A stretch of 64,000 nucleotides of DNA from Kiritimatiellia bacterium (GTDB lineage Bacteria > Verrucomicrobiota > Kiritimatiellia > RFP12 > UBA3636): contig JAGCJJ010000007.1 in assembly GCA_017648065.1 (NCBI GenBank), positions 4,167 to 68,166 of the forward strand, read 5' to 3'. The notes under the pieces were generated by a model, which was not told where the DNA came from, did not search any database, and saw nothing but the letters and a program-made list of their open reading frames with translations. Position 1 is the stretch's first letter; every line of letters starts with the position of its first letter. Of the stretch, positions 6,309 through 52,774 are shown piece by piece. A program made the position numbers and the translations under genes.

Positions 6309-6351
6309 CATTTTATTGTTTAGACAATTATAGTGTGCATTTAGCACCGAC

Positions 6352-7176: not shown

Positions 7177-7179
7177 CAA

Positions 7180-7836
7180 GTGAAAAGAACTTTGGCTGAG
7201 CGAATTGAAATGTTCAATTCTTCTGACATTTATCCAGTTGTAAGTTCAAATTTTTGCAATGGACGTGACGTAACAGACGTTGTCGCGTCCATTGCACGCG
7301 GTGGCGCAAAGATTGTTCAGCTTCGAGAAAAAACTTGCTCTGACCATCAGCTTTTTGAACTTACAAAGCAATGTAAAATGATTACAGATGAATATAATAT
7401 GTTGCTTATTGTAGATGATAGGTTAGACATTGCTTTGGCTGCTGGTGCAGATGGCGTTCATCTTGGGCAGGATGATTTACCAATATCTGTGGCACGTAAC
7501 TTAGCTCCTGAATTATTGCTCGGAGCTTCGACGCATAATAAAAATGAAATTCTTGAGGCAATGGATGCTGGTTGTTCATATCTGAATATGGGGCCAATGT
7601 TTCCAACAAAAACAAAAAGTGTTCAATGTGGGGCTTTGGGATTGGAGTTTATTGAAGAATTAAAGGGATATGTAAAATGTCCATTCTCAGTTATGGGAGG
7701 AATAAAAGGGGAGCATATTCCATTACTTTCATCAAAAGGGTATAAACATATAGCTATGGTTACAGAGATAACTCAAGCAGTAAATATCGAAGAGAAGGTA
7801 AAACAACTTAGGTATATTATGAGTGATGCAACTTAG
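7180..7836 (+). CDS. thiE: thiamine-phosphate synthase
   Basis: IVQLREK, DDRLDIALAAGADGVHLGQDDL, GASTHN, and GG near the C-terminus. GTG start, 3 nt after the thi4 stop. Confidence 0.85.
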   Translation: MKRTLAERIEMFNSSDIYPVVSSNFCNGRDVTDVVASIARGGAKIVQLREKTCSDHQLFELTKQCKMITDEYNMLLIVDDRLDIALAAGADGVHLGQDDLPISVARNLAPELLLGASTHNKNEILEAMDAGCSYLNMGPMFPTKTKSVQCGALGLEFIEELKGYVKCPFSVMGGIKGEHIPLLSSKGYKHIAMVTEITQAVNIEEKVKQLRYIMSDAT

Positions 7837-7846
7837 AATTGGATTT

Positions 7847-8701
7847 ATGGAAAATAGAAAAAATAGCACTAATAATTTTCCTGTAACTCTTACAATAGCA
7901 GGAAGTGATTCTGGAGGAGGGGCAGGGATCCAAGCAGATTTACGAACATTCTCTCACTTAAATGTTTATGGATGTTCTGTAATTACTGCAATAACCGCAC
8001 AAAACCCTAATGAGGTGAGGTTAGTAAATGTATTATCAGATGAGATAATAATATCTCAGTTAGATACTGTTTTTTCTGCATTTAACATTAATGTGGTAAA
8101 AACAGGTATGCTTCCTAATGAGAATATTGTCAATGTTGTGGCAAACTATATCAAACAACGAAAGCTCGTAGCTGTTGTTGATCCGGTTATGGTTTCCACA
8201 TCAGGTGTCAGGTTGGTAGATACAAACAGTGTGCAAGCAATTAAGAAAACTCTTTTACCATTAGCTACATGGATTACACCAAACATTCCAGAGGCAGAGC
8301 TGATTGTAGGGAAAGAAATAAACTCTTTTGATGATATATTAAATGCTGCGTTGGAGATATTTAATATATATAAGTGTAATGTCGTCTTAAAATGTGGACA
8401 TGCTACTTGGTTAGATAAAGCAAAAGATGTGGTGTGCTATGGGGGGATGCTTTATTTATTAACTTCACCATTGCTTGAAATTGTTAACAACGAAGCACAT
8501 GGTACAGGATGTACATTAAGTTCTGCGATGGCAGCATGTTTAGCTCAAGGGAAAGCATGGGAGGATGCAATCAAAGAAGCTAAGGCATTTGTTTATGGAT
8601 CTCTATTTGAGAAGGTTTATTTGAAAGAAAATTTTGCTCAAATGTTCCCTCCAAAATTAGATTATATTGATGCGGTTATGTTAGAGAAAATGAACTATTA
8701 A
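7847..8701 (+). CDS. thiD: hydroxymethylpyrimidine/phosphomethylpyrimidine kinase
   Basis: LTIAGSDSGGGAGIQADLRTF, VKTGML, DPVMVSTSG, GTGCTLSSA. The track start at 7823 overlaps thiE; ATG 7847 is equally possible. Confidence 0.9.
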   Translation: MENRKNSTNNFPVTLTIAGSDSGGGAGIQADLRTFSHLNVYGCSVITAITAQNPNEVRLVNVLSDEIIISQLDTVFSAFNINVVKTGMLPNENIVNVVANYIKQRKLVAVVDPVMVSTSGVRLVDTNSVQAIKKTLLPLATWITPNIPEAELIVGKEINSFDDILNAALEIFNIYKCNVVLKCGHATWLDKAKDVVCYGGMLYLLTSPLLEIVNNEAHGTGCTLSSAMAACLAQGKAWEDAIKEAKAFVYGSLFEKVYLKENFAQMFPPKLDYIDAVMLEKMNY

Positions 8702-8877: not shown

Positions 8878-9927
8878 ATGGATAAAAAATCACTGATTGC
8901 TTCATTTGCAGCTATTCAGGCATGTGCTCTTCTAGCAGCAGATCAGCCTGCAACACTAGCTTCAGATGTTAAAGAAGGTAAGGTTTCAAATCTTTTAGAG
9001 TCTATTGAGCCAGGTAATATGATGATTACTGACTATATTAGACTAGGTGTAGAGGCAGAGTTTATTGGTCGTTATCGTGAGGGTTCAGTACAAACAGAAG
9101 AGTCTCAAGATGATTTTTATTTTGATACATTAGATATCTCTTTAGATATTAACGTATCAGAGAACATTTCTTTCAAAACAGTTTTCGAGTATGATGACTA
9201 CGAAGATGATTTTGGTGTAGATACTGCTCAGTTCGATATCAAACTAAATGATAACCTATCATTCACGGTTGGTAAGGCATATATCCCATTTGGTCGTTTT
9301 TCAACAGATATGATTACAGATCCTTTCACAGAGGATTTTGCAGAAATTTGTGAGACAACAGTTGGTGCTACATACAATTTTGACGACACACTTATCTTCT
9401 CTGCTTGGTTATACCAGACAGATATCGAAGATGAGTTTAATAATTATGCTTTGACATCAGAATTCCGCACAGCTGATTGGTTGTCTTTTGGTGTAGCTTT
9501 TGTATCTGATATTGCTGCTGGTTATCTTCAGGAACGTTATTTTGAAACTCAGCCTTCTGGTAATTATGATCAGACAGCTGGTATCAATGTTTGGTTTGCT
9601 CTAACTCCTTCAGAGAAGTTCCGCTTCTATGGTGAGTTTATTGGTGCTCTTGATAACATTGATTTTATGGGCGGTGAGACACCTCGCGCATGGAGCTTTG
9701 ATGCTTCATACGATGCAACAGATGTTGTAACTGTTGCTGCTCGTTACGAGGGAGCTAGCTCTTTCGGTACTGCAATGCATTATATTTCTAGCCGCTTTGG
9801 TGGTGCTGTTAAGTATGCATATAACGATTTCATCACATTCGGTGTTGAGTATATGTTCGCAGAATACGAGAATATTGAAGAAGATGGTAGTCATGAGTTC
9901 GCAGGTAGCGTAGCTATTGAATTCTAA
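8878..9927 (+). CDS. putative outer-membrane beta-barrel protein / porin
   Basis: Signal peptide (…ACALLA/ADQ), alternating amphipathic aromatic-rich segments, an acidic composition, and a C-terminal ...VAIEF with terminal Phe typical of OMPs. Confidence 0.5.
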   Translation: MDKKSLIASFAAIQACALLAADQPATLASDVKEGKVSNLLESIEPGNMMITDYIRLGVEAEFIGRYREGSVQTEESQDDFYFDTLDISLDINVSENISFKTVFEYDDYEDDFGVDTAQFDIKLNDNLSFTVGKAYIPFGRFSTDMITDPFTEDFAEICETTVGATYNFDDTLIFSAWLYQTDIEDEFNNYALTSEFRTADWLSFGVAFVSDIAAGYLQERYFETQPSGNYDQTAGINVWFALTPSEKFRFYGEFIGALDNIDFMGGETPRAWSFDASYDATDVVTVAARYEGASSFGTAMHYISSRFGGAVKYAYNDFITFGVEYMFAEYENIEEDGSHEFAGSVAIEF

Positions 9928-9957
9928 GAAAAATTTTTATCAATAAATAATTTTAAT

Positions 9958-9988
9958 AGGCAGTGGAGCAATCCACTGCCTATTTTTT
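9958..9988 (+). terminator. rho-independent terminator
   Basis: AGGCAGTGGA-GCAA-TCCACTGCCT followed by TATTTTTT, 31 nt after the stop codon. Confidence 0.85.
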
Positions 9989-10137: not shown

Positions 10138-10166
10138 TTGTCAAAATTAAATATTTTTTGTATAAT
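10138..10166 (+). promoter_or_regulatory. putative sigma70-type promoter (TTGTCA-17-TATAAT) of the pseudopilin operon
   Basis: Near-consensus hexamers with a 17-nt spacer, ~70 nt upstream of the gspF-like ATG. Confidence 0.45.
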
Positions 10167-10238
10167 CTTAACAAAAACCAATGGGTGTACCATATCTAGT
10201 TTTTTATAAATTTTCATCAAATCTTGGAGAATTTGTAT

Positions 10239-11477
10239 ATGCCAACATTTAATTTTAAAGCAATGGATCAAAGTGGAAAAGAGGTTTCAGGAAACCTTAC
10301 TGCTCAAAATCAGGCTGCTGCTGTAGCTATGCTTCGCAAAGAAGGATATACGCCAACATCTGTAACTGCTGCAGATGGAAGCGATAAAAAGGGCGGCTTA
10401 AATATGACAATTAAGATGCCTAAGCTTATTAAACCTCGTGTGAAAGCAAAGAATCTAATGGTGCTTACTCGTCAGCTTGCAACACTTGTTGATTCAGGTC
10501 TTCCTTTGCTACGTGGTTTGCGTATTCTTGCAAAGCAAGAGAAGAATGAAACACTAAAGCGTGCTCTTATAGGTATGAGTGAATCAGTTGAAGGTGGTTC
10601 AACATTCTCCGATGCACTTGCTCTATATCCAAAAATCTTCAATAACCTTTACATAAATATGGCAAAGGCTGGCGAGGCTGGTGGTGTGCTTGAAACTGTA
10701 TTAAACCGCTTGGCAGAATTCTTGGAAAAAGCAGAAAAAATTAAGAATAAGGTTAAGGGTGCGATGACTTACCCAATCGTAGTTCTCTGTGTTGCCTTAG
10801 GTATTACAGGCTTCTTGATGGTTACAGTTATCCCACAGTTTGAAAAGGTATTTTCAGATCTTATGGATGGAAAAGCTATGCCTGCATTAACTCAAGCAGT
10901 TATCAATTTCAGCCATAATTTTGCTGATATGGCGCCGATTTGGGCAATTGGTATTATTGCAATCGTTGTATTGCTAAATCTTTGGAATAGAACAACTGCT
11001 GGTCATTATGCTTTGGATGCGTTAAAGCTAAGAATTCCTATTATGGGTCAGTTGATTCTAAAGAGCTCTATTTCTCGTACAACACGTACATTGGGTACAC
11101 TAATGAGTTCAGGCGTACCAGTGCTTCAAGCTCTGAATATCGTGCGTGATACATCTGGCAATGCGGTTCTTGCAAAAGTTTATCAAAGCATTCATGACAG
11201 TGTAAAAGAGGGTGAAAATATGACTCCAGCTATGGAGCGCTCAAAGGTTTTTCCTGCTATGGTGGTAAGTATGGTTGATGTTGGTGAGGAGACAGGTGCT
11301 CTTCCTGATATGCTTGCTCGTGTTGCTAATACTTATGATGATGAGGTTGATACAGCAGTTGAAGCTATGACATCTATTATTGAGCCAATCCTAATCGTAT
11401 TCCTTGCATTAGTTGTTGGTACAATTGTTATTGCGATGTTTCAGCCATTGGTATCTATCATTGGTGGTATGGGTTAA
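10239..11477 (+). CDS. gspF: type II secretion / type IV pilus platform protein (GspF/PilC family, two T2SSF repeats)
   Basis: FNFKAMDQSGKEVSG N-terminus, LATLVDSGLPLLRGL, AGEAGGVLETVL, LGTLMSSGVPVLQAL, VGEETGALPDML, with three TM segments. The track start is TTG 10224; ATG 10239 is preferred. Confidence 0.9.
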   Translation: MPTFNFKAMDQSGKEVSGNLTAQNQAAAVAMLRKEGYTPTSVTAADGSDKKGGLNMTIKMPKLIKPRVKAKNLMVLTRQLATLVDSGLPLLRGLRILAKQEKNETLKRALIGMSESVEGGSTFSDALALYPKIFNNLYINMAKAGEAGGVLETVLNRLAEFLEKAEKIKNKVKGAMTYPIVVLCVALGITGFLMVTVIPQFEKVFSDLMDGKAMPALTQAVINFSHNFADMAPIWAIGIIAIVVLLNLWNRTTAGHYALDALKLRIPIMGQLILKSSISRTTRTLGTLMSSGVPVLQALNIVRDTSGNAVLAKVYQSIHDSVKEGENMTPAMERSKVFPAMVVSMVDVGEETGALPDMLARVANTYDDEVDTAVEAMTSIIEPILIVFLALVVGTIVIAMFQPLVSIIGGMG

Positions 11478-11490
11478 TAACAAATTAGAT

Positions 11491-11529
11491 GCTTTGCGTC
11501 GCAATAATAGAATATTGTGACGCAAAAGC
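11491..11529 (+). other. long intercistronic RNA hairpin between gspF and the first pseudopilin gene
   Basis: GCTTTGCGTCGCAATA-ATAGA-TATTGTGACGCAAAAGC gives a ~16-bp stem with one bulge and one G-U pair. No U-tract follows. Confidence 0.4.
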
Positions 11530-11578
11530 ATAAAGCAAGTTATTTAGATATTTGAATATTGTTACAGTTGGAGTTTTT

Positions 11579-12529
11579 ATGAATAAAGCACGAAATGGAT
11601 TTACAATTATTGAGATGATGATTGTTCTTATAATCATCGCAATTTTGGCTGGCTTTGTTTTTCGTATGATGACATTAGCAGGTCAAAAGAATGATATAGC
11701 TGCAACAAAGGCAAAGTTAGAAAAGATTTCAAATGCCTTGGAAGCATATCGTGCAGAATATGGAAGTTATCCGCCTGTTGCTATATATAGAGGCAAGCAA
11801 CCTACATTTTATGAGATCCCAGTTGGAGGAGAAAATTCTGACATGGGGTATATAACACCAGAGATGGCTGCCCGAATGCAAAATATTTCTATGCGTGATG
11901 GAAATAAGTGGAATGAGTTTCCTCTATTTACTTTTGGTTTAGCTTCATATTTTTACCCACGTTATTGGGGTATTGCTGAAAATAGAGTTCCAAAAGAGTT
12001 TTTTGGTGATTTAGATGCCGAGGACATTATAAAAAATAAAGATAACGGAGCAGATGCGGAGCGTGTAATTAATCAATGGAAAGATCATAATAACCGCAAA
12101 ACTGGTAAAGATGGTAAAAAAATTCAAATTACTGACATCAATAAAGACATGAATGTAGTTAAAAAGATTTTGCCGATGCTTGATACTGGTATTAGTTTTA
12201 AAATGGAAAATGGGAAGAAGAAGTGGGTTATGCATAAGCATGATGATGGTAACCCTAATTATGGAGTTGGTAATTGGGAATGGAATGGATCTGCAGAGTT
12301 TCAAAAAGTAGATGCCCTAGAACGTGAGTTTGAATCGTTTGAATATTTAACTCAGGGCGTTTCTTTAAAAGATGCTTGGGGAAATCATTTGCATTATCAA
12401 AGTAATCCTCCCTATGATAGTTATAGAATTTGGTCTGTAGGTGTTAATGGTAATACATGTGATCCAACTTGTGAAAATCCATCAACTTGTAGAAATTGTT
12501 CTGATGACCTTGTTGCAGGGCAACAATAA
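11579..12529 (+). CDS. GspG-like pseudopilin with a large internal insertion and Cys-rich C-terminus (316 aa)
   Basis: Class III signal MNKARNG|FTIIEMMIVLIIIAILAG, a GspG-like helix (AATKAKLEKISNALEAYRAEYGSYPP), and a GspG C-terminal motif DAWGNHLHY...YRIWSVGVNG. It ends CDPTCENPSTCRNC. An SD GGAG precedes ATG 11579. Confidence 0.75.
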   Translation: MNKARNGFTIIEMMIVLIIIAILAGFVFRMMTLAGQKNDIAATKAKLEKISNALEAYRAEYGSYPPVAIYRGKQPTFYEIPVGGENSDMGYITPEMAARMQNISMRDGNKWNEFPLFTFGLASYFYPRYWGIAENRVPKEFFGDLDAEDIIKNKDNGADAERVINQWKDHNNRKTGKDGKKIQITDINKDMNVVKKILPMLDTGISFKMENGKKKWVMHKHDDGNPNYGVGNWEWNGSAEFQKVDALEREFESFEYLTQGVSLKDAWGNHLHYQSNPPYDSYRIWSVGVNGNTCDPTCENPSTCRNCSDDLVAGQQ

Positions 12530-12541
12530 TTTATAGGAGAG

Positions 12542-13228
12542 ATGATGAGAAAAAAAGAATTCCGTTCGGGCTTCTCTTTGATGGAGCTTCTTGTAGTAAT
12601 TTCAATAATAGGTATTTTAGCCGGACTATTAATCCCTGCTGTTCAGCGTGCTAAACGCCGTGCAAAAGAGGGTGAAATACAACAAATGTGTGTGCAAATG
12701 GTAGATGCATGGAAATCTGTTCAGCTCGAAAATTTGCGTTTCCCATACAAAGATTTGATTAGTGCTTATACATCAAATCTTATTGATATTGATGGGGATT
12801 TGTGTTTCCCTATGACACCAAAGGCGGGTTCATTGTTGAATTGGTGGAAGCCACAAAATCCTTTGCCAAAGTACGATAAAATGAATTTTGATAAATATAC
12901 TAAAGGAATTAATTGGGACGACCCAACTACATGGCCGAATGATTTTGTGTATGAACGTTCTGGTATACAGAAGCAGTTTGGTGTGGTGGCTCCATGGTTG
13001 GAGATAAAATTAAATGATTCTAAGGCTGATGTAGGAACAACGGTTGATGAGTCTCAGTTGATGTGGGTCTTGATTGATTCAAATGCTGATGGCGTTTTGT
13101 CTGTCCCAACAAATATGGGAATCCCTTCAGAAAAAACAACAGATACAGATGGAAATCCTATAAAATTAGCAGCATCAGCTGCTGCATGGCTTGCTGCTGA
13201 GGATGGTACAATCATTACATCTTGGTAG
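12542..13228 (+). CDS. prepilin-type N-terminal cleavage/methylation domain protein (pseudopilin, class unclear)
   Basis: Signal ...RSG|FSLMELLVVISIIGILAGLLIPAVQRAKRRAKE. The C-terminal ...LIDSNADGVLS is reminiscent of the GspG S-x-G-x-DG ending. Confidence 0.75.
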   Translation: MMRKKEFRSGFSLMELLVVISIIGILAGLLIPAVQRAKRRAKEGEIQQMCVQMVDAWKSVQLENLRFPYKDLISAYTSNLIDIDGDLCFPMTPKAGSLLNWWKPQNPLPKYDKMNFDKYTKGINWDDPTTWPNDFVYERSGIQKQFGVVAPWLEIKLNDSKADVGTTVDESQLMWVLIDSNADGVLSVPTNMGIPSEKTTDTDGNPIKLAASAAAWLAAEDGTIITSW

Positions 13229-13255
13229 TTTTCTAGAATATTTTGAGGCATAAAA

Positions 13256-13948
13256 ATGAAAAAGAATAACGGTTTTACATTAGTAGAATTACTCATTGTA
13301 GTTGGCATCATTGGTGTGTTAATGGGTTTGTTGTCTCCAGCGATTTTGAAGGCTTCGAAAGGTGCTGTAAATAAATCACGCAAAGTAGAGATGACGGTAC
13401 TTGAAACAGCATTAACAGAGTATCATCATGATAATAAAGGATGGCCAATCCCTGCAAAACCAAAACAGGAAGGTGCTGTCTATGGAAAAAATTCAGCAGG
13501 TGTTGTTGATCCGGCAATTATAGAGTATTCTGGTGACAAAACAAAAGTTGTTTGGAATCGTCTTCTAAAGAAAGGGGCAGATTCAAAATATAATTCCCGT
13601 AAAAAGGATTATATTGATATTTCAAGTATGACTGCTATTAAGACTTACCATAAAGATAACCCTAGAAAAAATGTTGAGGGGGATAATGTTGGACGTGTTA
13701 GAGATTTGTGGGGAGATGATGCAGAGATAAAAGGCCCGTTAGTGTATTGGTGTGATTTTATTGAATGCCCTAGATGTCATGAATGGTCTACTAACCTTGA
13801 ATATTGTACAAATTTACAATGTCCAGGTCGAAATGGCGGTAAAGCTTTTCATTTTAAGAGAGCTGATAAGAGAATTAGACATCGTGGTGTAATGCCATAC
13901 AAAATTGTATTTGATTTAACATCAAATGTTGTTTATGTAAAAGAATAA
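13256..13948 (+). CDS. pseudopilin with C-terminal five-cysteine cluster (CX4CX2CX9CX4C)
   Basis: Signal MKKNNG|FTLVELLIVVGIIGVLMGLL and a GspG-like helix (VEMTVLETALTEYHHDNKGWPIP). The Cys cluster CDFIECPRCHEWSTNLEYCTNLQC lies at 13751-13822. Confidence 0.75.
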   Translation: MKKNNGFTLVELLIVVGIIGVLMGLLSPAILKASKGAVNKSRKVEMTVLETALTEYHHDNKGWPIPAKPKQEGAVYGKNSAGVVDPAIIEYSGDKTKVVWNRLLKKGADSKYNSRKKDYIDISSMTAIKTYHKDNPRKNVEGDNVGRVRDLWGDDAEIKGPLVYWCDFIECPRCHEWSTNLEYCTNLQCPGRNGGKAFHFKRADKRIRHRGVMPYKIVFDLTSNVVYVKE

Positions 13949-13974
13949 CCCAATCAATTAGAAAAATATTGATT

Positions 13975-14817
13975 ATGGTGGAGAAATCAAAAATGGGAAA
14001 AAGATTTGATAATTCTGGATTTACTTTGCTTGAGCTATTAGGCGTAATGGGCGTAATAGTGGTTATGTCTTTTTTTGTAGTAAGTGGCTATAAGAGTATT
14101 ATGCAGGGTGTAAATGATAATACTGGTGTGAAGGGCATGCGTGATGCTGTGCAACTTGCTCGTCAGCATGCAATGCTTGACAATTCACGAACATTTTTTG
14201 TCGTTACAAGTATTAACTCTTTTGTGTTGTGTAGAGATGGTGGTGTAATAACAAGTTTTGAACAAGCACAAAAAAATGTACCTTATTTAGACAATAGATC
14301 TGTGGAAGCTTTTTGGGCCTCAGATGAATGGGCAGATTGGGAAGCCTTAAGTGATGGATTCTCTTCTATATACAAAAGAGATGTGATTGAGGAGATGATT
14401 AGTAATTCATCTTCTTCGAAGTACAAGGGAATAATTATGTACGATCTCGATGAAGGTAAATTTGCTCGAGTGGCTATTCCTCCTTTTAAACAGGATAGTA
14501 CTTGGTATATCGGTTTTAATAAATCAGATATCAAAGGAGATATGTTTAAAGAAGGTAATTCTTATGGATGGATGCTTTATGAGGAGCGTTATTTACCTAA
14601 AGGTTATATTTTTGATTCAAAGCATTACAAATTAGATTCTGATGGATTGTTTGAAGTTGGTTCAGGTTCCGTTGTTTGTTTTAATCCCGATGGTTCGTTA
14701 GATTCCAGTTATGATGATGAGTTGACAATTGGTGAAGTTGATCCGACAAAACCAGATAGTATTAAAAATAAGGTTTCTGTATCTGTAGATTCAGATGGCT
14801 CTATTGAGGTCAAATAG
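13975..14817 (+). CDS. minor pseudopilin, GspH-like by position
   Basis: Signal ...DNSG|FTLLELLGVMGVIVVMSFFVV, followed by AVQLARQHAML. The start is ambiguous (TTG 13969, ATG 13975 or ATG 13993). Confidence 0.7.
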   Translation: MVEKSKMGKRFDNSGFTLLELLGVMGVIVVMSFFVVSGYKSIMQGVNDNTGVKGMRDAVQLARQHAMLDNSRTFFVVTSINSFVLCRDGGVITSFEQAQKNVPYLDNRSVEAFWASDEWADWEALSDGFSSIYKRDVIEEMISNSSSSKYKGIIMYDLDEGKFARVAIPPFKQDSTWYIGFNKSDIKGDMFKEGNSYGWMLYEERYLPKGYIFDSKHYKLDSDGLFEVGSGSVVCFNPDGSLDSSYDDELTIGEVDPTKPDSIKNKVSVSVDSDGSIEVK

Positions 14818-14848
14818 ATATTTAGGTTTTTGTGAGGAGGGAGAATTT

Positions 14849-15442
14849 ATGTCTCGAAAAGGTTTTTCATTGATTGAAGTTAATATGGCAATTTTTATAG
14901 CAGCAGCGGGCTTGTTGTCTCTTTTTACTCTTTTCCCTGCTGGTTTACGACAAAGTGAAATGTCATCAGAGGACTTATATCAGTCTACTTATGCGACATC
15001 AATATTGCAAATGATAGCAGGAAATATTGCAACAATAGATGATGTAGATGTTTGGAATGATACAGAAAAAGATTTTTGGGCAATTGCTGTAGAAGGAACG
15101 GATTTGCCAAAAAAACTTCAAAAATCAAGTCAAGCCTTGAGAACAAGTAATTTTGATAGAGAAATATTGGATCAGTATTTAGATTTTACAGAAGGTGGAG
15201 CTCGTAATGTAGAAGATAATGTTTGGTATACGGGCTCAGAATTTTCTGGTAGTACAAAATCTGATTCATTACCGGAACAATATTTAATTCGTGTCTTTAG
15301 AAAAGGCAATACTATGCCGAACGTTTATGTGGTTTCTGTTGTTTGTTCTTCTATAAAACCCCCAGCGATTTACTATCAAAATTCTGTTTATAGTATGGAG
15401 TTTGCTTTTTATGGAAAAACTTGGTCCGCTGGACCACAGTAA
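14849..15442 (+). CDS. minor pseudopilin, GspI-like by position
   Basis: Signal MSRKG|FSLIEVNMAIFIAAAGLLSLFTLF, with SD GAGGAGGGA upstream of ATG 14849. The track ORF start at 14795 overlaps the previous gene. Confidence 0.7.
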   Translation: MSRKGFSLIEVNMAIFIAAAGLLSLFTLFPAGLRQSEMSSEDLYQSTYATSILQMIAGNIATIDDVDVWNDTEKDFWAIAVEGTDLPKKLQKSSQALRTSNFDREILDQYLDFTEGGARNVEDNVWYTGSEFSGSTKSDSLPEQYLIRVFRKGNTMPNVYVVSVVCSSIKPPAIYYQNSVYSMEFAFYGKTWSAGPQ

Positions 15443-15490
15443 ACATTATGTGTAAAGCCAAATGTGTAGTAATAGAAAGTTGGAGAGAAT

Positions 15491-16138
15491 ATGAATTTAG
15501 GTGCAAATAAAGGCTTTTCTTTAATTGAAGTAATGGTTGCTACGACTATTCTGATGATTATAGTAATAATGGTTGGTAATATTTTTAGACATAGTTCAAA
15601 TGCATGGGAAACAGGCTATGCTGTAGCTGAAGGAACTAGTGGAATTCGTAGTGTATTAGGAACTATACATCGAGAGTTATCACAAGCAGTGGATGGAAGG
15701 AAATGTGGTGAAAAATGGGAATCTCCTATTCTTATTAAGGGTGATTCAATTGAATTTTATAGATATGTTGAACCAACAAAAAAAGGGTCTACAGAGCCTG
15801 AGGTTCAAAAGATTACATATACACTAGGTAAAACGGTTAAACGAAAAGTAAAAACAGGCAAAGAAGACGAAGGATCAGAAACGATTCTATATTCAAAGAG
15901 AACTGCTGTTGGAGGCAATTCTGATGCAGATGTTATCTTTGAAGTAGTCCCTCCATCTGACTTAAATATGAATAATATGAATCTAAATGAAGGGGTAAGT
16001 GAAGACGATTTTTGGACTGTTCCATTTGTTGTCGTTAAAGCAAAAATTTCTAGAAAAAGTACATTTGCAGGTATGGAAGCACGTTCGTATGGCCCAGATG
16101 GTAAAAGAGGCACAGAGGACGATATTATTGCTCGTTAA
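15491..16138 (+). CDS. minor pseudopilin, GspJ-like by position
   Basis: Signal MNLGANKG|FSLIEVMVATTILMIIVIMVGNIF, followed by ...NAWETG. Confidence 0.7.
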   Translation: MNLGANKGFSLIEVMVATTILMIIVIMVGNIFRHSSNAWETGYAVAEGTSGIRSVLGTIHRELSQAVDGRKCGEKWESPILIKGDSIEFYRYVEPTKKGSTEPEVQKITYTLGKTVKRKVKTGKEDEGSETILYSKRTAVGGNSDADVIFEVVPPSDLNMNNMNLNEGVSEDDFWTVPFVVVKAKISRKSTFAGMEARSYGPDGKRGTEDDIIAR

Positions 16139-16163
16139 ACCTTGATGCAGATTGGATTTATTT

Positions 16164-16640
16164 ATGAAAAAGAATAATGGTTTTACAGTTATAGAGTTGC
16201 TAGTTGTTACTGGCATTATTGCAATTCTTATGGGTATGATAGGCACTTCTGCATTTATTGCACGTAGTCAGGCATATAAGGCACAGGCAAGAGCAGAGAC
16301 TCAGCAGTTGATAACTGCCGTAAAAGCAATTTGGATTGCCCGTGAGGATAATAAAGTCCCTATAAACACAGGAACTGTAAAAATGACTGCTGATAATGTA
16401 AAGAAATTTACTGTTGAAAATGATACAGGTGTCAGAAGTTATTTAGAAATCCCAACTTCACGATTAAATGAGGGTGGTTACCTTGACCCCTGGGGTAACG
16501 AGTATGAGTACACCATTTCAGATATAAAAGAAGAGGAACTGCCAGACGAAGTTTTTCAAATTTCAGTTTCTTTCCTAAATGCAGATAGATTTCATTACAA
16601 GAAAGATATTGCTATAGATATTATAGAAGACGAAAATTAA
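16164..16640 (+). CDS. gspG: GspG-like major pseudopilin of near-canonical size (158 aa)
   Basis: Signal MKKNNG|FTVIELLVVTGIIAILMGMI, then QAYKAQARAETQQLITAVKAI, then DPWGNEYEY (16485-16511), the GspG signature. The track start is 16152. Confidence 0.8.
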   Translation: MKKNNGFTVIELLVVTGIIAILMGMIGTSAFIARSQAYKAQARAETQQLITAVKAIWIAREDNKVPINTGTVKMTADNVKKFTVENDTGVRSYLEIPTSRLNEGGYLDPWGNEYEYTISDIKEEELPDEVFQISVSFLNADRFHYKKDIAIDIIEDEN

Positions 16641-16698
16641 TCTTTTGTCATGTTTGAATATTGTGTTTGAATATTGTTAGTAATTAAGGAGATTTTTA

Positions 16699-19600
16699 AT
16701 GAAAATAAATCGAGAAGATAATGGCTCCGCATTGGTTATTGTATTAGGTATGCTTGCGGTGTTAATGCTTATGGCTGTGGCTTTCTCCATCATTATGCGA
16801 ACAGAGCGTGCCGGAACAACAAACCTTCGTCATAGCCTAACTGCGCAGAATGGCATTAATTCCGCAATTGCACTTGCTATCCACGATATTGAAGAAGATG
16901 TAGGTGATGAGATTATTCCGGATTGGGAAAATTATGTTTTTTCTTCGTTTGGCTTAGGAACAACGAAAGATTTAAATAATGCAAAGCTTTCTATTCTTAA
17001 TGAGCGAGCACAACGCCATTTAAATCCTACAACTCGCGCATTGGTAAAAAATGCAACAGTAGATTGGCGTTTATTATATTCTGGTATCCCATTGAGTAAT
17101 TACTCCGCAAATAGTGATGATTATCTTGATGATGATACTATTGTTGGTCGTGTTGCGTATGTTGCTGTAAATACTACTGGATATATTGACCCTAATAAGG
17201 TTACATATTTAAAAGATTATGACAGTAAGGAACTGACAAAAGAACCTATAATTGCCGTTCCTGAAGATTCTCCACAATTTAACGATACATCGTTTGCTAA
17301 AAATGGCGGGAAAAATGTATTATTCAGTAAGTCTGACTTTGTGACGAAAAGACAGGAAAAAAATCGTGAAGGATTTACTTCTTTTGCTGATTTATATACA
17401 TTGAATGAAAGTGAGATGTATGACTCAAGTGGTAAACTTAAAAAGAGCCCACAGATGTTTATAAATCTTTTTTCACCAAAAGAACCAAATAAATTGTTTC
17501 TTCCAGATATTTTTGGATCTTCAGCATCATTTGGAATGAGTCCATATCCTCCACAGGTAGAAAGGGATGTAAATGAACCTTATGCAGATCCAAATTCGGA
17601 TGACTATGTTGTTCTTAGGGAGCCTGTAAAAATAGAAAGCGAACCTAGAAACGTTACGCTTACAGAAGATGTAATGCGAAATATATATGTAGCTTTTTGT
17701 AATATATTTGCGCGTAAGAATTGGATTGAAGAATCTTCTTATGGTGAAGGTGAAATTCAATATGAGAATAATAATGAGATTTCAATCGGGAATGTAGAGT
17801 GGCCGTTCAGGCATATGGGTGTGATGAAGAATAGTGTACTTACTCGTGCTGATTTGGCTTTATTATCATTTGCTGAATTTTATACTTATAAGAGGGGAAA
17901 TGATAGCGATTTTAACAGTAATAAGTATATAGAGATGGCAATTGATGTAATAAATGATGGTGGTGGCCGTCCGAAAATTAGTGATGTTCTTGATGCTCCA
18001 TGCTTTAAACATGTTCCAATGGTTTCATCAATTATTGGATATACAGATAACCCAGAAGTTCCAGATGATAATGATATTAAAATTTACTATCATAATGGTA
18101 ATGGAAAATTTTCTCCTGTAAAAGATGATGATGTTATTCCTCCAAAAAAAACAACAGCAAAATATTATGCGAAATACGAACTTCCTATAAATTTTGTTGT
18201 CTCAGCAACAAGTCCATATCTTTATAAAGGCGGAGGATCTCCAACTGCTGCAAAAATGAATGTGAAGATTATGTTTGGCCCTAATGCTAATGGTCAAAAT
18301 ATCTTTGCAGATATCCAAAAAAATATTAATGGAGATCCAAAAATAGTTATTGATCCACAATCAAATTTTGCTAAGAAAGTAAAGGGTGGGCATGATTTTT
18401 CCGAATCTGAAAAATATAACAAATCACTTGTAACAAGAAGTATTAAAGCAGAAGATGATTCATTAACAGAAAAAATAGAGATTTATATTCAGTGTAAAGA
18501 CCCTTCTAGAATATCAACGGAAGAAGCTCCAATCGCAATTAAAGATATTAAAAACTTATTTAGATGGGAAGATGCACAATTTGATAAAAGTTCATTGGAT
18601 AAGTATTCCATTGATATATTTGCGCAAATAGATATAAAAGTCGGCAGTAAAGATGTTCAACTTGTCCCAGGTAAAAAGATTCGTAGTAAGAGCGGACCTG
18701 AAGGATATATTCATTTTAAGCTTCCATTATTTTTTGGAGAAGTTAAAGGAAATAATGGAAATAATGGGAATAAAGGAAATAAAGAAATAAATCACCATCG
18801 CTTTGGATATGCAATGGTTATTGATCCACGCTTTGCTGCAGCAACTTATTGTTTGAATGAATTCAGAGAAGAAAGTACTGTTGAGTCTTTCCCATTTTGG
18901 GTAAATAATGCAATGGCTGAAAATTTAGGAGAATTTTCTAAACTAAAGGAATTTGAAATGGATGCAAAGTCCATTGACGATTTAGTTCCAGGTGGTAGAA
19001 CTCCAGATATTGCAAATCCATATGGTAAACTTGTAATGGGTTTTAATGCTGAAGGAGATGGGGTAGAGGATCATTCTTTCTGGGAGAACATTATTAAATT
19101 AGGTGATTTTTCTAAAGAACAAGGTATTCCATGTCCAGACACTTTACATAAGATTCCTGGAGGAGTTCAGCTTGTTAATGATAGTGGTTTTGTTGGAAAG
19201 GACTTAGAAATTGATTTTGGTATCTATGGCTCAGATATATCTAGCTTGGGTGAACTTGGTTCATTATGTATTGGACCATGGGAAACAATTTCTCTTTATA
19301 GAACACAAACACTTAATAAACGTAATAATAGTAGTCAGTATGATTTTCATACAGTTTTTGATTTCTTTACATTAGATATTCCTTCTAAATTGTCTGATAA
19401 TAAGGTGAATTTAAATACTCCGCCATTAGTTAAAATAAATGGGAAGAAAAATGTTCAAATTGTTAAAGAAGGAGATACGGAATTTGGTGGCCAAAAATTA
19501 AGATTGAGTAGACAAAACGAAATTAGAGCAGAAAAATATGTTTCTTTGGCAAGAGGAATGAATTTAGAACCTTTGACTGCAGTTATTTGTAGTTTAGATA

Positions 19601-20106
19601 CCAATTTTGACGACAAATCAAATAAAAGCACAGAATGGTTGCCGTTGTTTAATTATGAAGAGGCGCAAGAAATTGCTTCTCGTATCATTTATCAAAATAC
19701 AGGTGATGGTAATTGTTATTATTTTAAAGATATTTCTCAAATTGGTTATTCTTATACAAGAGATTCTTTATTAAATTATGTGATTGGAAAAATGGGAGAC
19801 GATGCTCTTAGAGATTCTTGGCGTGAGAATTTGCTTGGCAGTATAGCAAAGTATGTAACCACACGTGGTCAAACTTTTACAATTGTTGTTCGCTCAGATG
19901 CTTTTGCGCCTAAATACGGTTCGGACGTAGATGGTACTACGCTTGCAAGTAAGGTCGCTGTTGTCGAAGCATGGCGAGATACAGAGCCAGCACGAGATAA
20001 AGATGGAAATCCAATAACTATACCAGTTTATAATAGTCAAGGTAGACAAACTGGCGAAAAAAAATATCACAACTGGCATATTCGCTCTGTTCGAATTGTT
20101 GATTAG
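16699..20106 (+). CDS. giant GspK-like minor pseudopilin (1135 aa)
   Basis: The N-terminus EDNGSALVIVLGMLAVLMLMAVAFSIIMRTERAGTTNLRHSLTAQNGINSAIALAI matches the GspK pattern (no F+1/E+5, R-x-E after the helix). It occupies the last position of the pseudopilin block. I recognise no motif in the remaining ~1050 aa. Confidence 0.7.
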   Translation: MKINREDNGSALVIVLGMLAVLMLMAVAFSIIMRTERAGTTNLRHSLTAQNGINSAIALAIHDIEEDVGDEIIPDWENYVFSSFGLGTTKDLNNAKLSILNERAQRHLNPTTRALVKNATVDWRLLYSGIPLSNYSANSDDYLDDDTIVGRVAYVAVNTTGYIDPNKVTYLKDYDSKELTKEPIIAVPEDSPQFNDTSFAKNGGKNVLFSKSDFVTKRQEKNREGFTSFADLYTLNESEMYDSSGKLKKSPQMFINLFSPKEPNKLFLPDIFGSSASFGMSPYPPQVERDVNEPYADPNSDDYVVLREPVKIESEPRNVTLTEDVMRNIYVAFCNIFARKNWIEESSYGEGEIQYENNNEISIGNVEWPFRHMGVMKNSVLTRADLALLSFAEFYTYKRGNDSDFNSNKYIEMAIDVINDGGGRPKISDVLDAPCFKHVPMVSSIIGYTDNPEVPDDNDIKIYYHNGNGKFSPVKDDDVIPPKKTTAKYYAKYELPINFVVSATSPYLYKGGGSPTAAKMNVKIMFGPNANGQNIFADIQKNINGDPKIVIDPQSNFAKKVKGGHDFSESEKYNKSLVTRSIKAEDDSLTEKIEIYIQCKDPSRISTEEAPIAIKDIKNLFRWEDAQFDKSSLDKYSIDIFAQIDIKVGSKDVQLVPGKKIRSKSGPEGYIHFKLPLFFGEVKGNNGNNGNKGNKEINHHRFGYAMVIDPRFAAATYCLNEFREESTVESFPFWVNNAMAENLGEFSKLKEFEMDAKSIDDLVPGGRTPDIANPYGKLVMGFNAEGDGVEDHSFWENIIKLGDFSKEQGIPCPDTLHKIPGGVQLVNDSGFVGKDLEIDFGIYGSDISSLGELGSLCIGPWETISLYRTQTLNKRNNSSQYDFHTVFDFFTLDIPSKLSDNKVNLNTPPLVKINGKKNVQIVKEGDTEFGGQKLRLSRQNEIRAEKYVSLARGMNLEPLTAVICSLDTNFDDKSNKSTEWLPLFNYEEAQEIASRIIYQNTGDGNCYYFKDISQIGYSYTRDSLLNYVIGKMGDDALRDSWRENLLGSIAKYVTTRGQTFTIVVRSDAFAPKYGSDVDGTTLASKVAVVEAWRDTEPARDKDGNPITIPVYNSQGRQTGEKKYHNWHIRSVRIVD
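18748..18790 (+). repeat. imperfect 9-bp tandem repeat (GGAAATAAT-like, ~5 units) encoding GNNGNNGNKGNKEIN
   Basis: Read directly: ggaaataat ggaaataat gggaataaa ggaaataaa gaaataaat, inside the GspK-like gene. Confidence 0.7.
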
Positions 20107-20125: not shown

Positions 20126-20524
20126 ATGAAGCAAAAACTGATTTCCGCTGCTCGTGAGGTAGCAAAAAATGCATATTGCAAATATTCTAATTACCATGTT
20201 GGTGCGGCTCTCTTAGCGGATGATGGCACCATATGGCTAGGTTGTAATGTGGAAAATTCCTCATTTGGAGCAACAAATTGTGCAGAGCGTACAGCCCTTT
20301 TTTCTGCAATAGCAGCTGGTAAGCGTAAATTTTCAGCAATAGCTGTTGTTGGTGGCACAGATGCTGAACCAGCTTCTCCATGTGGTATTTGCCGTCAAGT
20401 GCTATCCGAATTTTGCTCTTCGGAAATGCCTGTATATTTTGCAGGACTTGAAGGTGATACAATCCATACAACAACACTTGGTGAGCTACTGCCACTTGCA
20501 TTTTCAGGAGCAAATCTTGAATGA
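20126..20524 (+). CDS. cdd: cytidine deaminase
   Basis: Zinc motifs CAERTALFSAIAAG and PCGICRQVLSEF. 132 aa. Confidence 0.9.
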   Translation: MKQKLISAAREVAKNAYCKYSNYHVGAALLADDGTIWLGCNVENSSFGATNCAERTALFSAIAAGKRKFSAIAVVGGTDAEPASPCGICRQVLSEFCSSEMPVYFAGLEGDTIHTTTLGELLPLAFSGANLE

Positions 20525-21675
20525 GTGAGCCTGTCCAAGAACAAGAAAAATTAGCTGAGCCAGAGTCAGTAGTTTCATTTGATGCGATGGCACTTCGTAG
20601 CGAACTTCAATTTGCTATAAAAGAGTTGGGCTTTACCACGCCTACAAAGGTGCAAGCAGCTCTTATTCCTCAATTATTGGAGAAACGTAAGGATTGTCTT
20701 GCTCTTGCAGCTACTGGTACAGGAAAGACTGCTGCCTTTGGACTTCCTTTATTAAATGCACTTTCTGCTGGTAAAGTAAAGCATCCTGAGGCTCTTATTG
20801 TTTGTCCGACACGTGAGCTTTGCAATCAGATTGCGGTTGATTTGCGTTCTTATGCAAAAGGTATGAAGGATGTGCGCGTGCTTGCTGTATATGGTGGAGC
20901 AGATATACAGTTCCAAATACTTGAACTATATCGTGGCGTATCAATTTTAGTAGCTACACCAGGCCGTCTTTTAGATTTGCTGGATCGCGGTGCTGCAAAG
21001 TTAGATGCAGTTAGGTGTCTGGTTCTTGATGAAGCTGATGAAATGCTTCAGATGGGCTTCAAAGAGGAACTTGATGCCATTGTAGATGCAGTTCCTGAAA
21101 AGGCTAGAACATGGATGTTCTCTGCTACAATGGATAAGCAAACAAAGCAGGTTGCTGATAAACTTCTGACAAATCCCATTGTTGTTAATACGATTACAAA
21201 AACAGAAGCACCTCAGATTTACCATCAATGTATAGTTTTTAAGAAGCATGCAGACAGAGCAAAGGAATTAGACAAGTTGCTCAAAAAGCCTGAATTTTTT
21301 GGACTTGTTTTCCTCCGTACACGCGATGGAGTGCGTAATCTTTCTATGCGCTATAAAGCTGGTGATGTAGCATCATTACGTGGCGATATGCCACAAAAGG
21401 AGCGCGACAAGGTTATGCGCGCATTTCGTAAGCACGAATTTAAAGCATTGCTTGCTACAGATATTGCTGCTAGAGGCATTGATATAGATGATATTACCCA
21501 TGTCATCCATTATGATATGCCAGACGATGCAGAGGCATATACTCATCGCAGTGGACGCACTGCCCGTGCAGGTAAGGCCGGCACATCAATTCTATTTGCA
21601 TTAGAAGAGGAGTTGCCAAAGGTATATCGCCTTGCAAAGCAGCTTAAAGTCTTCATTAAAATCAAAAAAATGTAG
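20521..21675 (+). CDS. DEAD-box ATP-dependent RNA helicase (compact, 384 aa)
   Basis: Q-motif region, ATGTGKTAAFGLP (I), PTRELC (Ia), VLDEADEML (II), SAT (III) and HRSGRTARAG (VI). The ATGA overlaps the cdd stop. Confidence 0.9.
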   Translation: MSEPVQEQEKLAEPESVVSFDAMALRSELQFAIKELGFTTPTKVQAALIPQLLEKRKDCLALAATGTGKTAAFGLPLLNALSAGKVKHPEALIVCPTRELCNQIAVDLRSYAKGMKDVRVLAVYGGADIQFQILELYRGVSILVATPGRLLDLLDRGAAKLDAVRCLVLDEADEMLQMGFKEELDAIVDAVPEKARTWMFSATMDKQTKQVADKLLTNPIVVNTITKTEAPQIYHQCIVFKKHADRAKELDKLLKKPEFFGLVFLRTRDGVRNLSMRYKAGDVASLRGDMPQKERDKVMRAFRKHEFKALLATDIAARGIDIDDITHVIHYDMPDDAEAYTHRSGRTARAGKAGTSILFALEEELPKVYRLAKQLKVFIKIKKM

Positions 21676-21990: not shown

Positions 21991-22098
21991 TGTTTTAAGG
22001 AACTAATAACTTCTTAAAACATCCCTAAAATATAACCTATCCCTAAACACTTCAATATGTGTGCCACCTTTAGATCCCTGTCTAAAGGTGGCTTTTTT
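21991..22098 (+). ncRNA. candidate small RNA (~105 nt): 5' hairpin, C-rich single-stranded motifs, intrinsic terminator
   Basis: A possible promoter is TTGCAA-18-TTAAAT (21956-21985). A 9-bp hairpin spans 21991-22021. AUCCCU occurs three times (22021, 22039 and 22074, the last in the terminator loop). The terminator is at 22063-22098. There is no ORF with an SD. Confidence 0.25.
22063..22098 (+). terminator. rho-independent terminator with no upstream ORF (~390 nt after the helicase stop)
   Basis: GCCACCTTTA-10 nt loop-TAAAGGTGGC followed by TTTTTT. Confidence 0.8.
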
Positions 22099-26279: not shown

Positions 26280-26294
26280 ATGCGAAATTGAATT

Positions 26295-52763: not shown

Positions 52764-52774
52764 TAAAGCTTGAT

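Follow-up and report, generated by a model that had tools for sequence, protein, structure and literature searches.

The plus-strand block at 10239-20106 of the window (the whole stretch of 64 kb that was analysed) was confirmed as a real unit of nine genes, which encode one platform protein (F), seven distinct pilin-like proteins (P2-P8) and one giant cap-like pilin (P9). A predicted sigma-70-like promoter, TTGTCA-17-TATAAT, can be read directly from the sequence at 10138..10166 on the plus strand. As the initial annotation had it, this is a near-consensus promoter ahead of the GspF/PilC gene; it matches at 11/12 positions and has the top score between 8.5 and 23.5 kb. In this AT-rich DNA, promoter-like sites are in general no commoner than expected (50 found, 57.7 expected). 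The likely true start codons of F (ATG at 10239, with a ribosome-binding GGAG at 10226-10229), P2 (11579), P3 (12545), P6 (14849) and P8 (16164) differ from those given at first. The same-strand run described earlier is unchanged, with its gaps revised from 12-100 nt to 15-101 nt when the gene callers' start codons are used.

The transcription unit is bounded on its 5' side by a strong intrinsic terminator on the plus strand at 9955..9984 (13-bp stem, 6 G-C pairs, T-run), which closes the upstream gene for an LbtU-type porin. The first strong terminator on the plus strand after the promoter, again with a 13-bp stem, 6 G-C pairs and a T-run, lies behind a DEAD-box gene at 22063..22092 and is the likely 3' boundary. 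Pfam identifies the two genes between the block and this terminator as cdd, for cytidine deaminase (20126-20524, plus strand), and a DEAD-box helicase gene (20521-21675, plus strand). Strong terminators occur only at these two sites, in line with the earlier view that none precedes cdd and the helicase gene, and therefore read-through into both is plausible. The two genes are probably co-transcribed passengers outside the system, because they adjoin the cassette solely in its closest relatives (L009-L011); in other lineages their position is taken by CorA, nucleoside hydrolase, rhomboid or other genes.

All seven of the proteins P2-P8 carry a class III signal, with a basic leader, Gly at -1, a hydrophobic residue at +1, Glu at +5 and about 20 hydrophobic residues. 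Retranslation of the ORFs reproduces every motif quoted initially: NGFTIIEMM (P2), SGFSLMELL (P3), NGFTLVELL (P4), SGFTLLELL (P5), KGFSLIEVN (P6), KGFSLIEVM (P7) and NGFTVIELL (P8). When all six frames of the 64 kb are scanned for G[F..][TS]xxE with a hydrophobic stretch behind it, exactly seven sites appear, all on the plus strand inside 11597-16179, and because these are the only sites and all fall within the operon, the seven signals are far from chance. The N_methyl or TIGR02532 models exceed their cut-offs for P2, P3, P4, P7 and P8, with P5 and P6 just under. The PDB profile matches of the pilins are pilin alpha-1 helices; profiles of P2, P5, P7, P8 and P9 compared with PDB sequences match the N-terminal helix or nothing. 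Between the globular parts of the seven pilin families (P2-P8) no paralogy was detected.

The first gene (10239..11477, plus strand) encodes F, a GspF/PilC-type inner-membrane platform protein of 412 aa. It contains T2SSF_N and two T2SSF domains (Pfam T2SSF, E=4.5e-65, in two stretches), the layout of a polytopic two-domain platform. In NCBIfam it scores 397 and 387 bits with PilC models (equivalog cut-off 700) and 384.5 bits with the GspF equivalog TIGR02120 (cut-off 424), all below the cut-offs, and in PDB it matches M. xanthus PilC (3jc8) with 326 bits. Judged by such scores, F is equidistant from the PilC and GspF models (397, 387 and 384 bits; PDB 79.7 versus 76.6 bits). NCBI names its orthologues 'type II secretion system F family protein' and JGI names them PilC; they are 51-95% identical in all cassettes, which makes F far better conserved than the pilins (25-80%). 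The Pfam scan of window ORFs revealed a second T2SSF protein at 52775-53683, which is single-domain and TadB/C-like. It had been overlooked initially.

P2 (316 aa, 11579..12529, plus strand) is a GspG-like pseudopilin that matches Pfam N_methyl (31.7 bits) and T2SSG (32 bits, cut-off 21) and is the sole cassette pilin to pass a T2SS pilin model, the Pfam T2SSG; with TIGR01710 it scores 56.7 bits, below the cut-off of 88.85. Family alignments (A2, A10) place an insertion of ~170-190 aa between its N-terminal helix and a conserved C-terminal D-A-W..Y..S.GPDG..DDI. The AF2 model of P2, for which as for P9 the pLDDT is moderate (66-70), has a helix at 4-61 followed by C-terminal strands and gives no significant Foldseek match. 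P8 (158 aa, 16164..16640, plus strand) is a small GspG-like pseudopilin, of which residues 10-122 align to positions 2-103 of 134 in TIGR01710 (E=2.3e-7, 30.9 bits, below the cut-off); Pfam T2SSG does not match it. It has no cysteine, as is also the case for GspG, and its D108-P-W-G..Y is invariant in 21 orthologues. Translation verifies the D(A/P)WGN..Y motifs reported before, as DAWGNHLHY at 12371-12397 (P2) and DPWGNEYEY at 16485-16511 (P8). By sequence, P2 and P8 only are GspG-like beyond the N-terminal helix, so that of the 'at least two, possibly three or four' GspG-like genes initially proposed, two are upheld and a third or fourth is not.

The remaining small pilins are all on the plus strand. 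P3 (227 aa, 12545..13228; N_methyl 24.3 bits) has a globular part that resembles no recognised class, shows no paralogy to the other pilins and has its own orthologue in 22 genomes (set A3). P4 (230 aa, 13256..13948; N_methyl 34 bits) has a four-cysteine motif, CxxC-x9-C-x4-C (C171, C174, C184 and C189), whose cysteines are kept in 83-91% of 23 orthologues. P5 (~274-282 aa, 13993..14817, with a start at 13969 or 13993; set A5) is weakly GspH/ComGD-like, its best match being ComGD NF040982 (30.6 bits, cut-off 70), and its N_methyl score of 17.1 bits is below the cut-off of 21.2. P6 (197 aa, 14849..15442; set A6) is weakly PilV/GspI-like, with matches below the cut-offs to TIGR02523 PilV (27.9 bits), Verru_Chthon B (27.6 bits) and XpsI (E=0.068). 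P7 (215 aa, 15491..16138; set A7) is weakly GspJ/PilW-like and matches Verru_Chthon C (29.2 bits) and GspJ PRK08808 (E=0.004). Its C-terminal GPDG...DDI motif is common to P2, and hhalign relates the C-termini of P2 and P7 with 77% probability.

The best weak matches fall in the order P5 to ComGD/GspH, P6 to PilV/XpsI, P7 to GspJ/Verru_Chthon C, P8 to GspG and P9 to GspK; they are far under the curated cut-offs and, P8 excepted, nearly all confined to the N-terminal 50-120 residues. None of the minor pseudopilin models is reached (GspH 14.5 bits with P5, XpsI 13.2 with P6, GspJ 16.3 with P7, GspK 17.5 with P9), and the GspH/I/J/K matches of P5, P6, P7 and P9 span the N-terminal part only. The H-I-J-(G)-K order recognised initially is at most consistent with these matches. 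With the class labels taken as weak, the order F-G-H-I-J-K is kept, P3 and P4 being inserted after G and P8 before K. F, then G, then minor pilins, then K is also the order of the gsp and comG operons (pul/eps and comG loci).

These results bear on the reading of the block as the G-K part of an ordinary T2SS, with the remaining genes elsewhere and each gene a diverged Gsp orthologue. The canonical order (F, G-like, then H-, I-, J- and K-like), the passing of Pfam T2SSG by P2 and the NCBI name of F are in its favor, as is the T2SS reported in the cultured relative Kiritimatiella glycovorans (PMC5148204). Such a reading is nevertheless improbable: eight pilin genes stand in place of five, with P3, P4 and P8 lacking a canonical counterpart, and the globular parts of the seven pilin families show no detectable paralogy; the H, I, J and K models are unmet, and the GspF and GspG equivalog cut-offs are missed as well; the K-like protein is ~3-4 times too long and its body is unmatched in Pfam, NCBIfam and PDB; and the window lacks GspC, GspL and GspM.

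P9 (1135 aa, 16699..20106, plus strand) is the giant cap-like pilin. Translation agrees with its earlier description as an eighth, GspK-style protein of 1135 aa without F+1 and E+5: the N-terminus of GspK type reads ...DNGS/ALVIVLGML, in which G9-S10 is invariant. A conserved N-terminal part of ~250 aa and a conserved C-terminal part of ~300 aa flank a variable middle. GspK NF037980 and Verru_Chthon_A match over the first ~60 residues only, and PF03934 T2SSK gave one sub-threshold match (E=0.25) with ten P9-family segments. The body has no Pfam match in any of 74 family members (1 + 26 + 47), P9 has no PDB sequence match at E<=10, and the family body is without Pfam, NCBIfam or PDB coverage. 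In the AF2 model (pLDDT 66), residues 9-68 are helical and residues 1058-1134 form a sheet; a Foldseek search with it matched no pilin at E<0.1. At 50% identity the family falls into 1,406 representative clusters, with lengths of 1,000-1,340 aa in the main clade, and some genomes that keep the full cassette have P9 proteins only 24-28% identical. GspK has ~330 aa. Judged by its length, a cap ~3-4 times the size of GspK suits a tip adhesin on the cell surface better than it does a piston in the periplasm.

The size of P9 raises the possibility that the cassette builds a true, T4P-like surface pilus, in which P9 is a modular tip adhesin or substrate-binder and not a secretion piston. Such a pilus would serve attachment to mucin, polysaccharide particles or cells, with PilB/PilT/PilQ-type partners elsewhere. 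A protein of 1,000-1,340 aa with a variable middle between conserved ends has the layout expected of a modular pilin, and large or modular tip pilins are documented for Thermus ComZ and S. sanguinis PilB (PMC6561018, PMC8179133). The best match of P6 is PilV, the top NCBIfam scores of F are to PilC, the name that JGI gives its orthologues, and eight pilins are more than in any canonical T2SS. This possibility is nevertheless a rather doubtful one, since a major pilin of PilA type, with its disulfide-bonded loop near the C-terminus, is missing (the best PilA score is 31 bits, where the cut-offs are 138-400), both candidate major subunits are GspG-like and P8 lacks cysteine. The gene order is that of gsp/comG and not pilBCD plus fimU-pilVWXY1E, not one of 74 P9-family members has a domain of the adhesin, lectin, VWA or beta-propeller type, and the paper on K. 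glycovorans (PMC5148204) never uses the words pili, pilin or pilus.

More than 25 GTDB species genomes, and further metagenome contigs, contain the nine-gene cassette with a single orthologue of each gene, the hosts being uncultured gut and environmental Kiritimatiellia; the comparison of the 10-kb block with related genomes, proposed earlier as a check of synteny, shows that it recurs as a unit. More than 20 genomes keep the gene order; L024, L026 and L030 show rearrangements of it. From lineage to lineage the flanking genes are unrelated, with 104 Pfam families spread over 91 neighbour genes and none in more than three. The initial claim that no motor or secretin lies nearby agrees with the searches. 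Pfam scans of all other substantial window ORFs found no T2SSE, Secretin, Peptidase_A24, PilM/N/O or GspC/L/M (for GspC, GspL and GspM, ORFs of 120 aa or more), and a GspE/PilB-type Walker A motif, G.TGSGK, occurs in no frame of the 64-kb window or of 42 related loci. The ~77 kb of the window's own contig have no motor or secretin; neither a GspE ATPase nor a GspD secretin is present in the window, this contig or the 42 loci, and no PilB, PilT or PilM-Q in the window or related loci, for which the flanks covered were up to 10 kb, and less on short contigs. Since the motor is missing from the surroundings of the cassette in every one of ~30 related genomes and 42 loci, the split is no chance peculiarity of this one genome. 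The 'split T2SS' proposed initially is strengthened to this extent; its partner genes are assumed and not observed, because neither GspE nor GspD nor a prepilin peptidase has come to light for this genome. The lack of a motor, secretin or peptidase in any locus examined would also suit an inactive relic or an orphan store of pilins without a dedicated machine. This is very improbable, given nine intact ORFs whose order is retained across genomes with P9 only 24-28% identical, the strong constraint on F (51-95% identity), and the predicted promoter and ribosome-binding sites.

The explanation to be preferred, with slightly better than even confidence, is that the block is the platform-plus-pilin module (F-G-H-I-J-K-like) of a T2SS/Com-type type IV filament machine, fixed in the class Kiritimatiellia (PVC superphylum) as a self-contained set of nine genes. 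The seven signals and the GspK-type N-terminus support it, being gathered in one operon and absent from the rest of the 64 kb, as do the T2SSF domains of F, the GspG-like matches of P2 and P8, the order of the weak H, I, J and K matches, the recurrence of the cassette between unrelated flanks without a motor, and the T2SS reported for K. glycovorans. Against it speak the unseen partner genes, the equal distance of F from PilC and GspF, the sub-threshold N-terminal matches behind the H, I, J and K labels, the PDB profile matches limited to the N-terminal helix, the lack of a significant Foldseek match for P2 and P9, and the size of the P9 cap. The module is best read as permanently split from its motor, with three additional pilins and an outsized cap; it resembles the half of a type II secretion-like machine that builds the fibre. 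For the individual pilin roles, the distant partner genes and the physiological output, we infer the following. A prepilin peptidase encoded elsewhere would cut each of the seven prepilins behind its conserved Gly, and P9 is probably cleaved between the invariant G9 and S10. GspH-I-J-K and FimU-PilVWX form priming or tip complexes in known systems; by analogy, P5, P6, P7 and P9 may form such a complex with the giant P9 as cap. With a GspE/PilB-type ATPase from another locus as its motor, the GspF-like platform would add P2 and/or P8 beneath this tip, and P3 and P4 may join as further low-abundance subunits. The fibre would act through an outer-membrane secretin, also encoded elsewhere. The likeliest output would be T2SS-like export or surface presentation of proteins, the hosts being polysaccharide-degrading bacteria.

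Four known systems resemble this putative module in different respects. The comGA-GG genes of Bacillus and Streptococcus likewise form one operon in which the platform gene, comGB, directly precedes the major and several minor pilins; P5 has its best match in ComGD, and P4 and P8 weakly match ComGC and ComGE. However, comG opens with the ATPase ComGA, its hosts are monoderm without a secretin, it has no giant K-like pilin, and F scores 148.6 bits with ComGB against about 390 with PilC and GspF. The Verru_Chthon cassette of Verrucomicrobium and Chthoniobacter (TIGR02596/02598/02599/02600, that is D, B, C and A) likewise comes from a PVC-superphylum lineage and combines small prepilin-type proteins with one protein of ~1,300 aa. 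Its models match weakly here, A with P9 (22.9 bits), B with P6 (27.6), C with P7 (29.2) and D with P8 (22.1) and P4, but the matches are limited to the first ~60 residues and, with 20-33 bits, miss all of the cut-offs, which range from 51 to 332 (A 332.3, B 51.4, C 256.5 and D 70 bits). Model A is matched by 25/27 P9 relatives at positions 1-57 of 1296 only, and distant P9 relatives also fall short of TIGR02600. The Verru_Chthon cassette is defined as four genes, whereas here there are a platform gene plus eight.

In T4aP, four core minor pilins (FimU-PilV-PilW-PilX) prime the fibre and present a very large tip protein, PilY1; P9 is similar to it in size and has a variable central part, and P6 matches PilV. 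Unlike P9, which begins as a pilin does and in whose family no PilY1, VWA or lectin domain was detected, PilY1 is no pilin, and the pilC of T4aP adjoins pilB and pilD and not the minor pilins. From the gsp/pul/eps operons (Klebsiella Pul, Vibrio Eps) the cassette differs in lacking gspC, D, E, L, M and O, also in flanks of up to 10 kb in ~30 genomes, in its three extra pilins (P3, P4 and P8) and the ~170-190 aa insertion of P2, in a K-like protein of 1,000-1,340 aa versus about 330, and in reaching no Gsp equivalog cut-off. In both, the platform gene is directly followed by that for a GspG-like pseudopilin, all pilins except the K-like protein have class III signals with E+5, GspG-like subunits carry D-P/A-W-G..Y (with C-terminal G.DG..DDI also in P2), and H-, I-, J- and K-like genes, in this order, close the operon, weak as these class labels are for the cassette.

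Nine ORFs on a single strand fill the interval from 10.1 to 20.1 kb of the window. The cassette opens with F, a GspF/PilC-type platform gene (10239..11477, +), continues with seven prepilin-type genes, P2-P8 (11579-16640, +), and ends with P9 (16699..20106, +), which encodes a giant cap-like pilin of 1135 aa. With the starts assigned by the gene callers (F 10239, P2 11579, P3 12545, P6 14849, P8 16164) the intergenic gaps are 15-101 nt. Each product of P2-P8 has a short basic leader, the signature G|F(T/S)xxE and a hydrophobic helix; the seven peptides quoted in the initial annotation match the translations exactly, and the D(A/P)WGN..Y motifs were found where it had placed them, at 12371-12397 and 16485-16511. 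A six-frame scan of the 64 kb returned exactly seven class III signals, all of them within the operon, so that their clustering is not a chance pattern. The top-scoring predicted promoter in 15 kb, TTGTCA-17-TATAAT at 10138-10166, lies in a 240-nt gap directly after a strong terminator (9955-9984), and the next strong plus-strand terminator (22063-22092) lies past the cdd and DEAD-box helicase genes that follow P9 (20126..21675, +). At 12510-12526 a weak hairpin coincides exactly with the P2 stop codon (7-bp stem, three G-C pairs, poor T-run). Attenuation after major pilin genes occurs elsewhere, and by analogy the hairpin could attenuate transcription beyond the F-P2 pair. The G+C content is 33-40% in 1-34000, with its minimum (33%) inside P9, and 41-45% over ~34-36 kb and 38-56 kb of the window.

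The F protein has two Pfam T2SSF domains (E=4.5e-65), and the gene callers also recorded T2SSF_N. Its PilC and GspF scores are equal in NCBIfam and likewise among PDB domains, and thus a T2SS and a type IV pilus are not separable through F. Among the pilins, P2 passes the Pfam T2SSG cut-off (32 bits, cut-off 21); in its family the GspG-type segment D-A-W..Y..S.GPDG..DDI is retained at the C-terminus, and the protein has an insertion of ~170-190 aa. P8, a cysteine-free protein of 158 aa in which DPWG..Y is invariant, aligns with the 134-position GspG model from position 2 to position 103. The best matches are ComGD/GspH for P5, PilV/XpsI for P6, GspJ for P7 and GspK for P9, and of Verru_Chthon A-D, the NCBIfam four-protein cassette of Verrucomicrobium/Chthoniobacter, B, C and A are also matched by P6, P7 and P9, and D by P8 and P4; all of these matches are far below cut-off and confined to the N-terminal part. 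The models assigned no pilin class to P3 and P4. P4 (13256-13948) carries a CxxC-x9-C-x4-C site (C171, C174, C184, C189), kept in 83-91% of 23 orthologues, which may form a zinc knuckle or a double disulfide, either of which would be unusual for a pseudopilin. Comparison with hhalign found no mutual similarity between the globular parts of the seven pilin families, except for a short C-terminal P2/P7 motif. Because the globular parts lack paralogy, tandem duplication of GspG was rejected as the source of the extra genes. PDB sequence searches with single sequences and with profiles matched the pilins at the N-terminal helix only, and an AlphaFold model of P2 (pLDDT 69.5) had no significant Foldseek match.

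P9 is identical to NCBI protein J6V41_00520. Its N-terminus, ...NGS|ALVIVLGML, is of the GspK/PilX style and lacks Glu at +5, and G9 and S10 are invariant across 27 relatives. A profile of these 27 relatives, searched against 1.84 billion proteins, defined a family of 1,406 representative clusters at 50% identity, 947 of them at E<=1e-10. Most of the conservation falls in the first ~250 residues and the last ~300. Pfam domains are absent from 74 family members apart from one Fib_succ_major match, and the profile retrieved nothing from PDB sequences even at E<=10. The AlphaFold model (pLDDT 66, pTM 0.61) shows a helix of 60 residues at the N-terminus and a sheet at the C-terminus, and gave no Foldseek match below E=0.1; when the AF2 models of P9 and P2 were searched, PulG (1t92) aligned over only 28 columns (E=4.3). 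Distant members match GspK and Verru_Chthon_A over ~60 N-terminal residues only, and a link of P9 to these families through such relatives was rejected. A G[KR]VN[IL]N[TS]..VL motif present in distant relatives resembles the helix-hairpin-helix motif of T2SSK (GspK) and serves as no more than a lead; among ten P9-family segments PF03934 gave a single match, at E=0.25. That the block is simply the ordinary G-K module of a T2SS is very unlikely, since it has three extra non-paralogous pilins and a giant unannotated cap, and every Gsp minor-pilin model fails.

The other parts of such a machine were sought in and around the window. A Walker A motif of the GspE/PilB/PilT/TadA type (G.TGSGK) is absent from all six frames of the window and of 42 related loci, and Pfam searches of the window ORFs of at least 120 aa found no T2SSE, Secretin, Peptidase_A24, PilM/N/O or GspC/L/M domain. 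The source contig, 89 kb long in ENA and part of a Kiritimatiellae MAG, was followed beyond the window for ~4 kb on the upstream side and 13 kb on the downstream side, and none of these domains occurs in ~10 kb upstream of lpxB or in 13 kb past the window 3' end. Among the best 25 of the 104 Pfam families found in 91 flanking genes of ~30 genomes there was no motor or secretin family. The genes for the ATPase, the secretin and the prepilin peptidase would thus have to lie elsewhere. That F is strongly constrained implies a working partner motor. A T2SS has been reported in the cultured relative Kiritimatiella glycovorans, in a one-line mention that is the only reference to a Kiritimatiellota T2SS in the literature searched (PMC5148204).

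Loci were collected through homologues of P9, 35 of them from GTDB species genomes and others from metagenome contigs, and the cassette was mapped in them by tblastn and ORF calling. In more than 20 genomes the cassette comprises F, a K-like protein of 1,000-1,340 aa and class III pilins, exactly seven of them, and each pilin of the window has its own orthologue in the relatives, in unchanged order. Internal rearrangements occur in three genomes: L026 and L030 have the order F-P2-P6-P7-P8-P4-P5-P3-K, and in L024 P4 is shifted ahead of P2; all three keep the P6-P7-P8 block (I-J-G') in one piece. In a more distant clade F is accompanied by six smaller pilins, and the K-like protein measures 700-780 aa. 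Identities across relatives are 51-95% for F, 25-80% for the pilins and 24-53% for P9. The flanks are unrelated between lineages, none of the 104 Pfam families in the 91 neighbour genes occurring more than three times. The conserved order, the unrelated flanks and the absence of a motor indicate that the cassette is a conserved self-contained unit, whose separation from the motor is, as judged from these loci, a fixed trait of the lineage. Two short contigs with P9-family genes, L034 (CACXHC010000318.1) and L037 (CAYQKZ010000627.1), come from MAGs that bear the labels Ruminococcus sp. and Desulfobacterales; probably both contigs are contaminants introduced by binning and not true occurrences outside the PVC group.

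The immediate neighbours do not belong to the system. An LbtU-family siderophore porin (8878-9927; NCBIfam 101 bits, cut-off 90) lies directly upstream, with a strong terminator at its end; it is linked to the cassette in the same species only and is therefore not part of it. The cdd and helicase genes follow the cassette only in the closest relatives. As such neighbours are limited to the closest relatives, a functional tie of the cassette to cdd, the DEAD-box helicase or the porin was rejected. The remaining window ORFs of at least 120 aa are housekeeping genes, including lpxI/lpxB, secA, rpsA, dxs and ribD/E. A thi4 - thiE-like - thiD-like operon (6352-8701) stands behind a TPP riboswitch (6211-6313; Rfam RF00059, 60.6 bits), and 24321-27968 encodes two adjoining large proteins of 652 and 557 aa that lack a Pfam or NCBIfam family, the first having only sub-threshold Laminin_G_3 and DUF6250 matches. 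The initial inventory of T2SS genes, otherwise sound as to the missing motor and secretin, had overlooked a second T2SSF protein at 52775-53683. This orphan is a single-domain, TadB/TadC/UpsF-like protein of 302 aa (Pfam T2SSF E=6.6e-14), preceded by a 64-aa protein that has one hydrophobic segment; the region (52569-53683) has rpsA on one side and a KDPG aldolase gene on the other, and neither a Tad ATPase nor other Tad genes were found nearby.

In PVC bacteria it is unsurprising in itself that type IV filament genes are scattered and that pilin sets are expanded. What is noteworthy here is that the nine-gene architecture is fixed, that the seven pilins are distinct and that the uncharacterised cap family is very large. 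The literature searched contains no account of this cassette, of Kiritimatiellota pseudopilins or of the Verru_Chthon cassette, and public annotations read 'T2SS F family protein', 'prepilin-type N-terminal cleavage/methylation domain protein' or 'hypothetical'. The cassette is strongly conserved and present in every lineage sampled here, and is probably the core filament module of Kiritimatiellia. These widespread, barely cultured bacteria of guts and sediments break down mucin and sulfated polysaccharides, and have large enzyme sets to export or display. The cassette offers a compact test case for how many different pilins one type IV filament can use, for the role of a giant cap pilin and for how a platform protein works with a motor that is never co-encoded. 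As the P9 family has no Pfam, NCBIfam or PDB coverage, one structure would annotate more than 1,000 protein clusters.

The cassette is best read as a platform-plus-pilin module belonging to a T2SS-related type IV filament system. P9 is of a size that suits a tip module exposed at the surface better than a piston in the periplasm, and for this reason an adhesive or presenting surface fibre stays a serious rival, although on balance an unlikely one. Somewhat more doubtful is the proposal that Kiritimatiellia, and possibly neighbouring PVC lineages, carry their own type IV filament subclass. It would combine a GspF-like platform hard-wired to seven non-paralogous pilins, one of them with a conserved four-cysteine metal- or disulfide-knuckle, and to a self-capping pilin of 1,000-1,300 aa from a wholly unannotated family of ~1,400 clusters at 50% identity; the product would be a heteropolymeric decorated fibre with its giant tip module outside the cell, in place of the classical periplasmic T2SS piston, and the tip would serve in polysaccharide or mucin capture or in enzyme display. 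We regard the cassette as a T2SS-like pilin module that is split, expanded and specific to its lineage, and not as a new kind of system. For the platform-plus-pilin module, analogy with the GspH-I-J-K and FimU-PilVWX priming complexes suggests that P5, P6, P7 and P9 would prime the tip and that P2 and/or P8 would then polymerise on F. Compared with gsp and comG operons the gene order is alike, the arrangement here being F-G-(two extra)-H-I-J-(extra G-like)-K.
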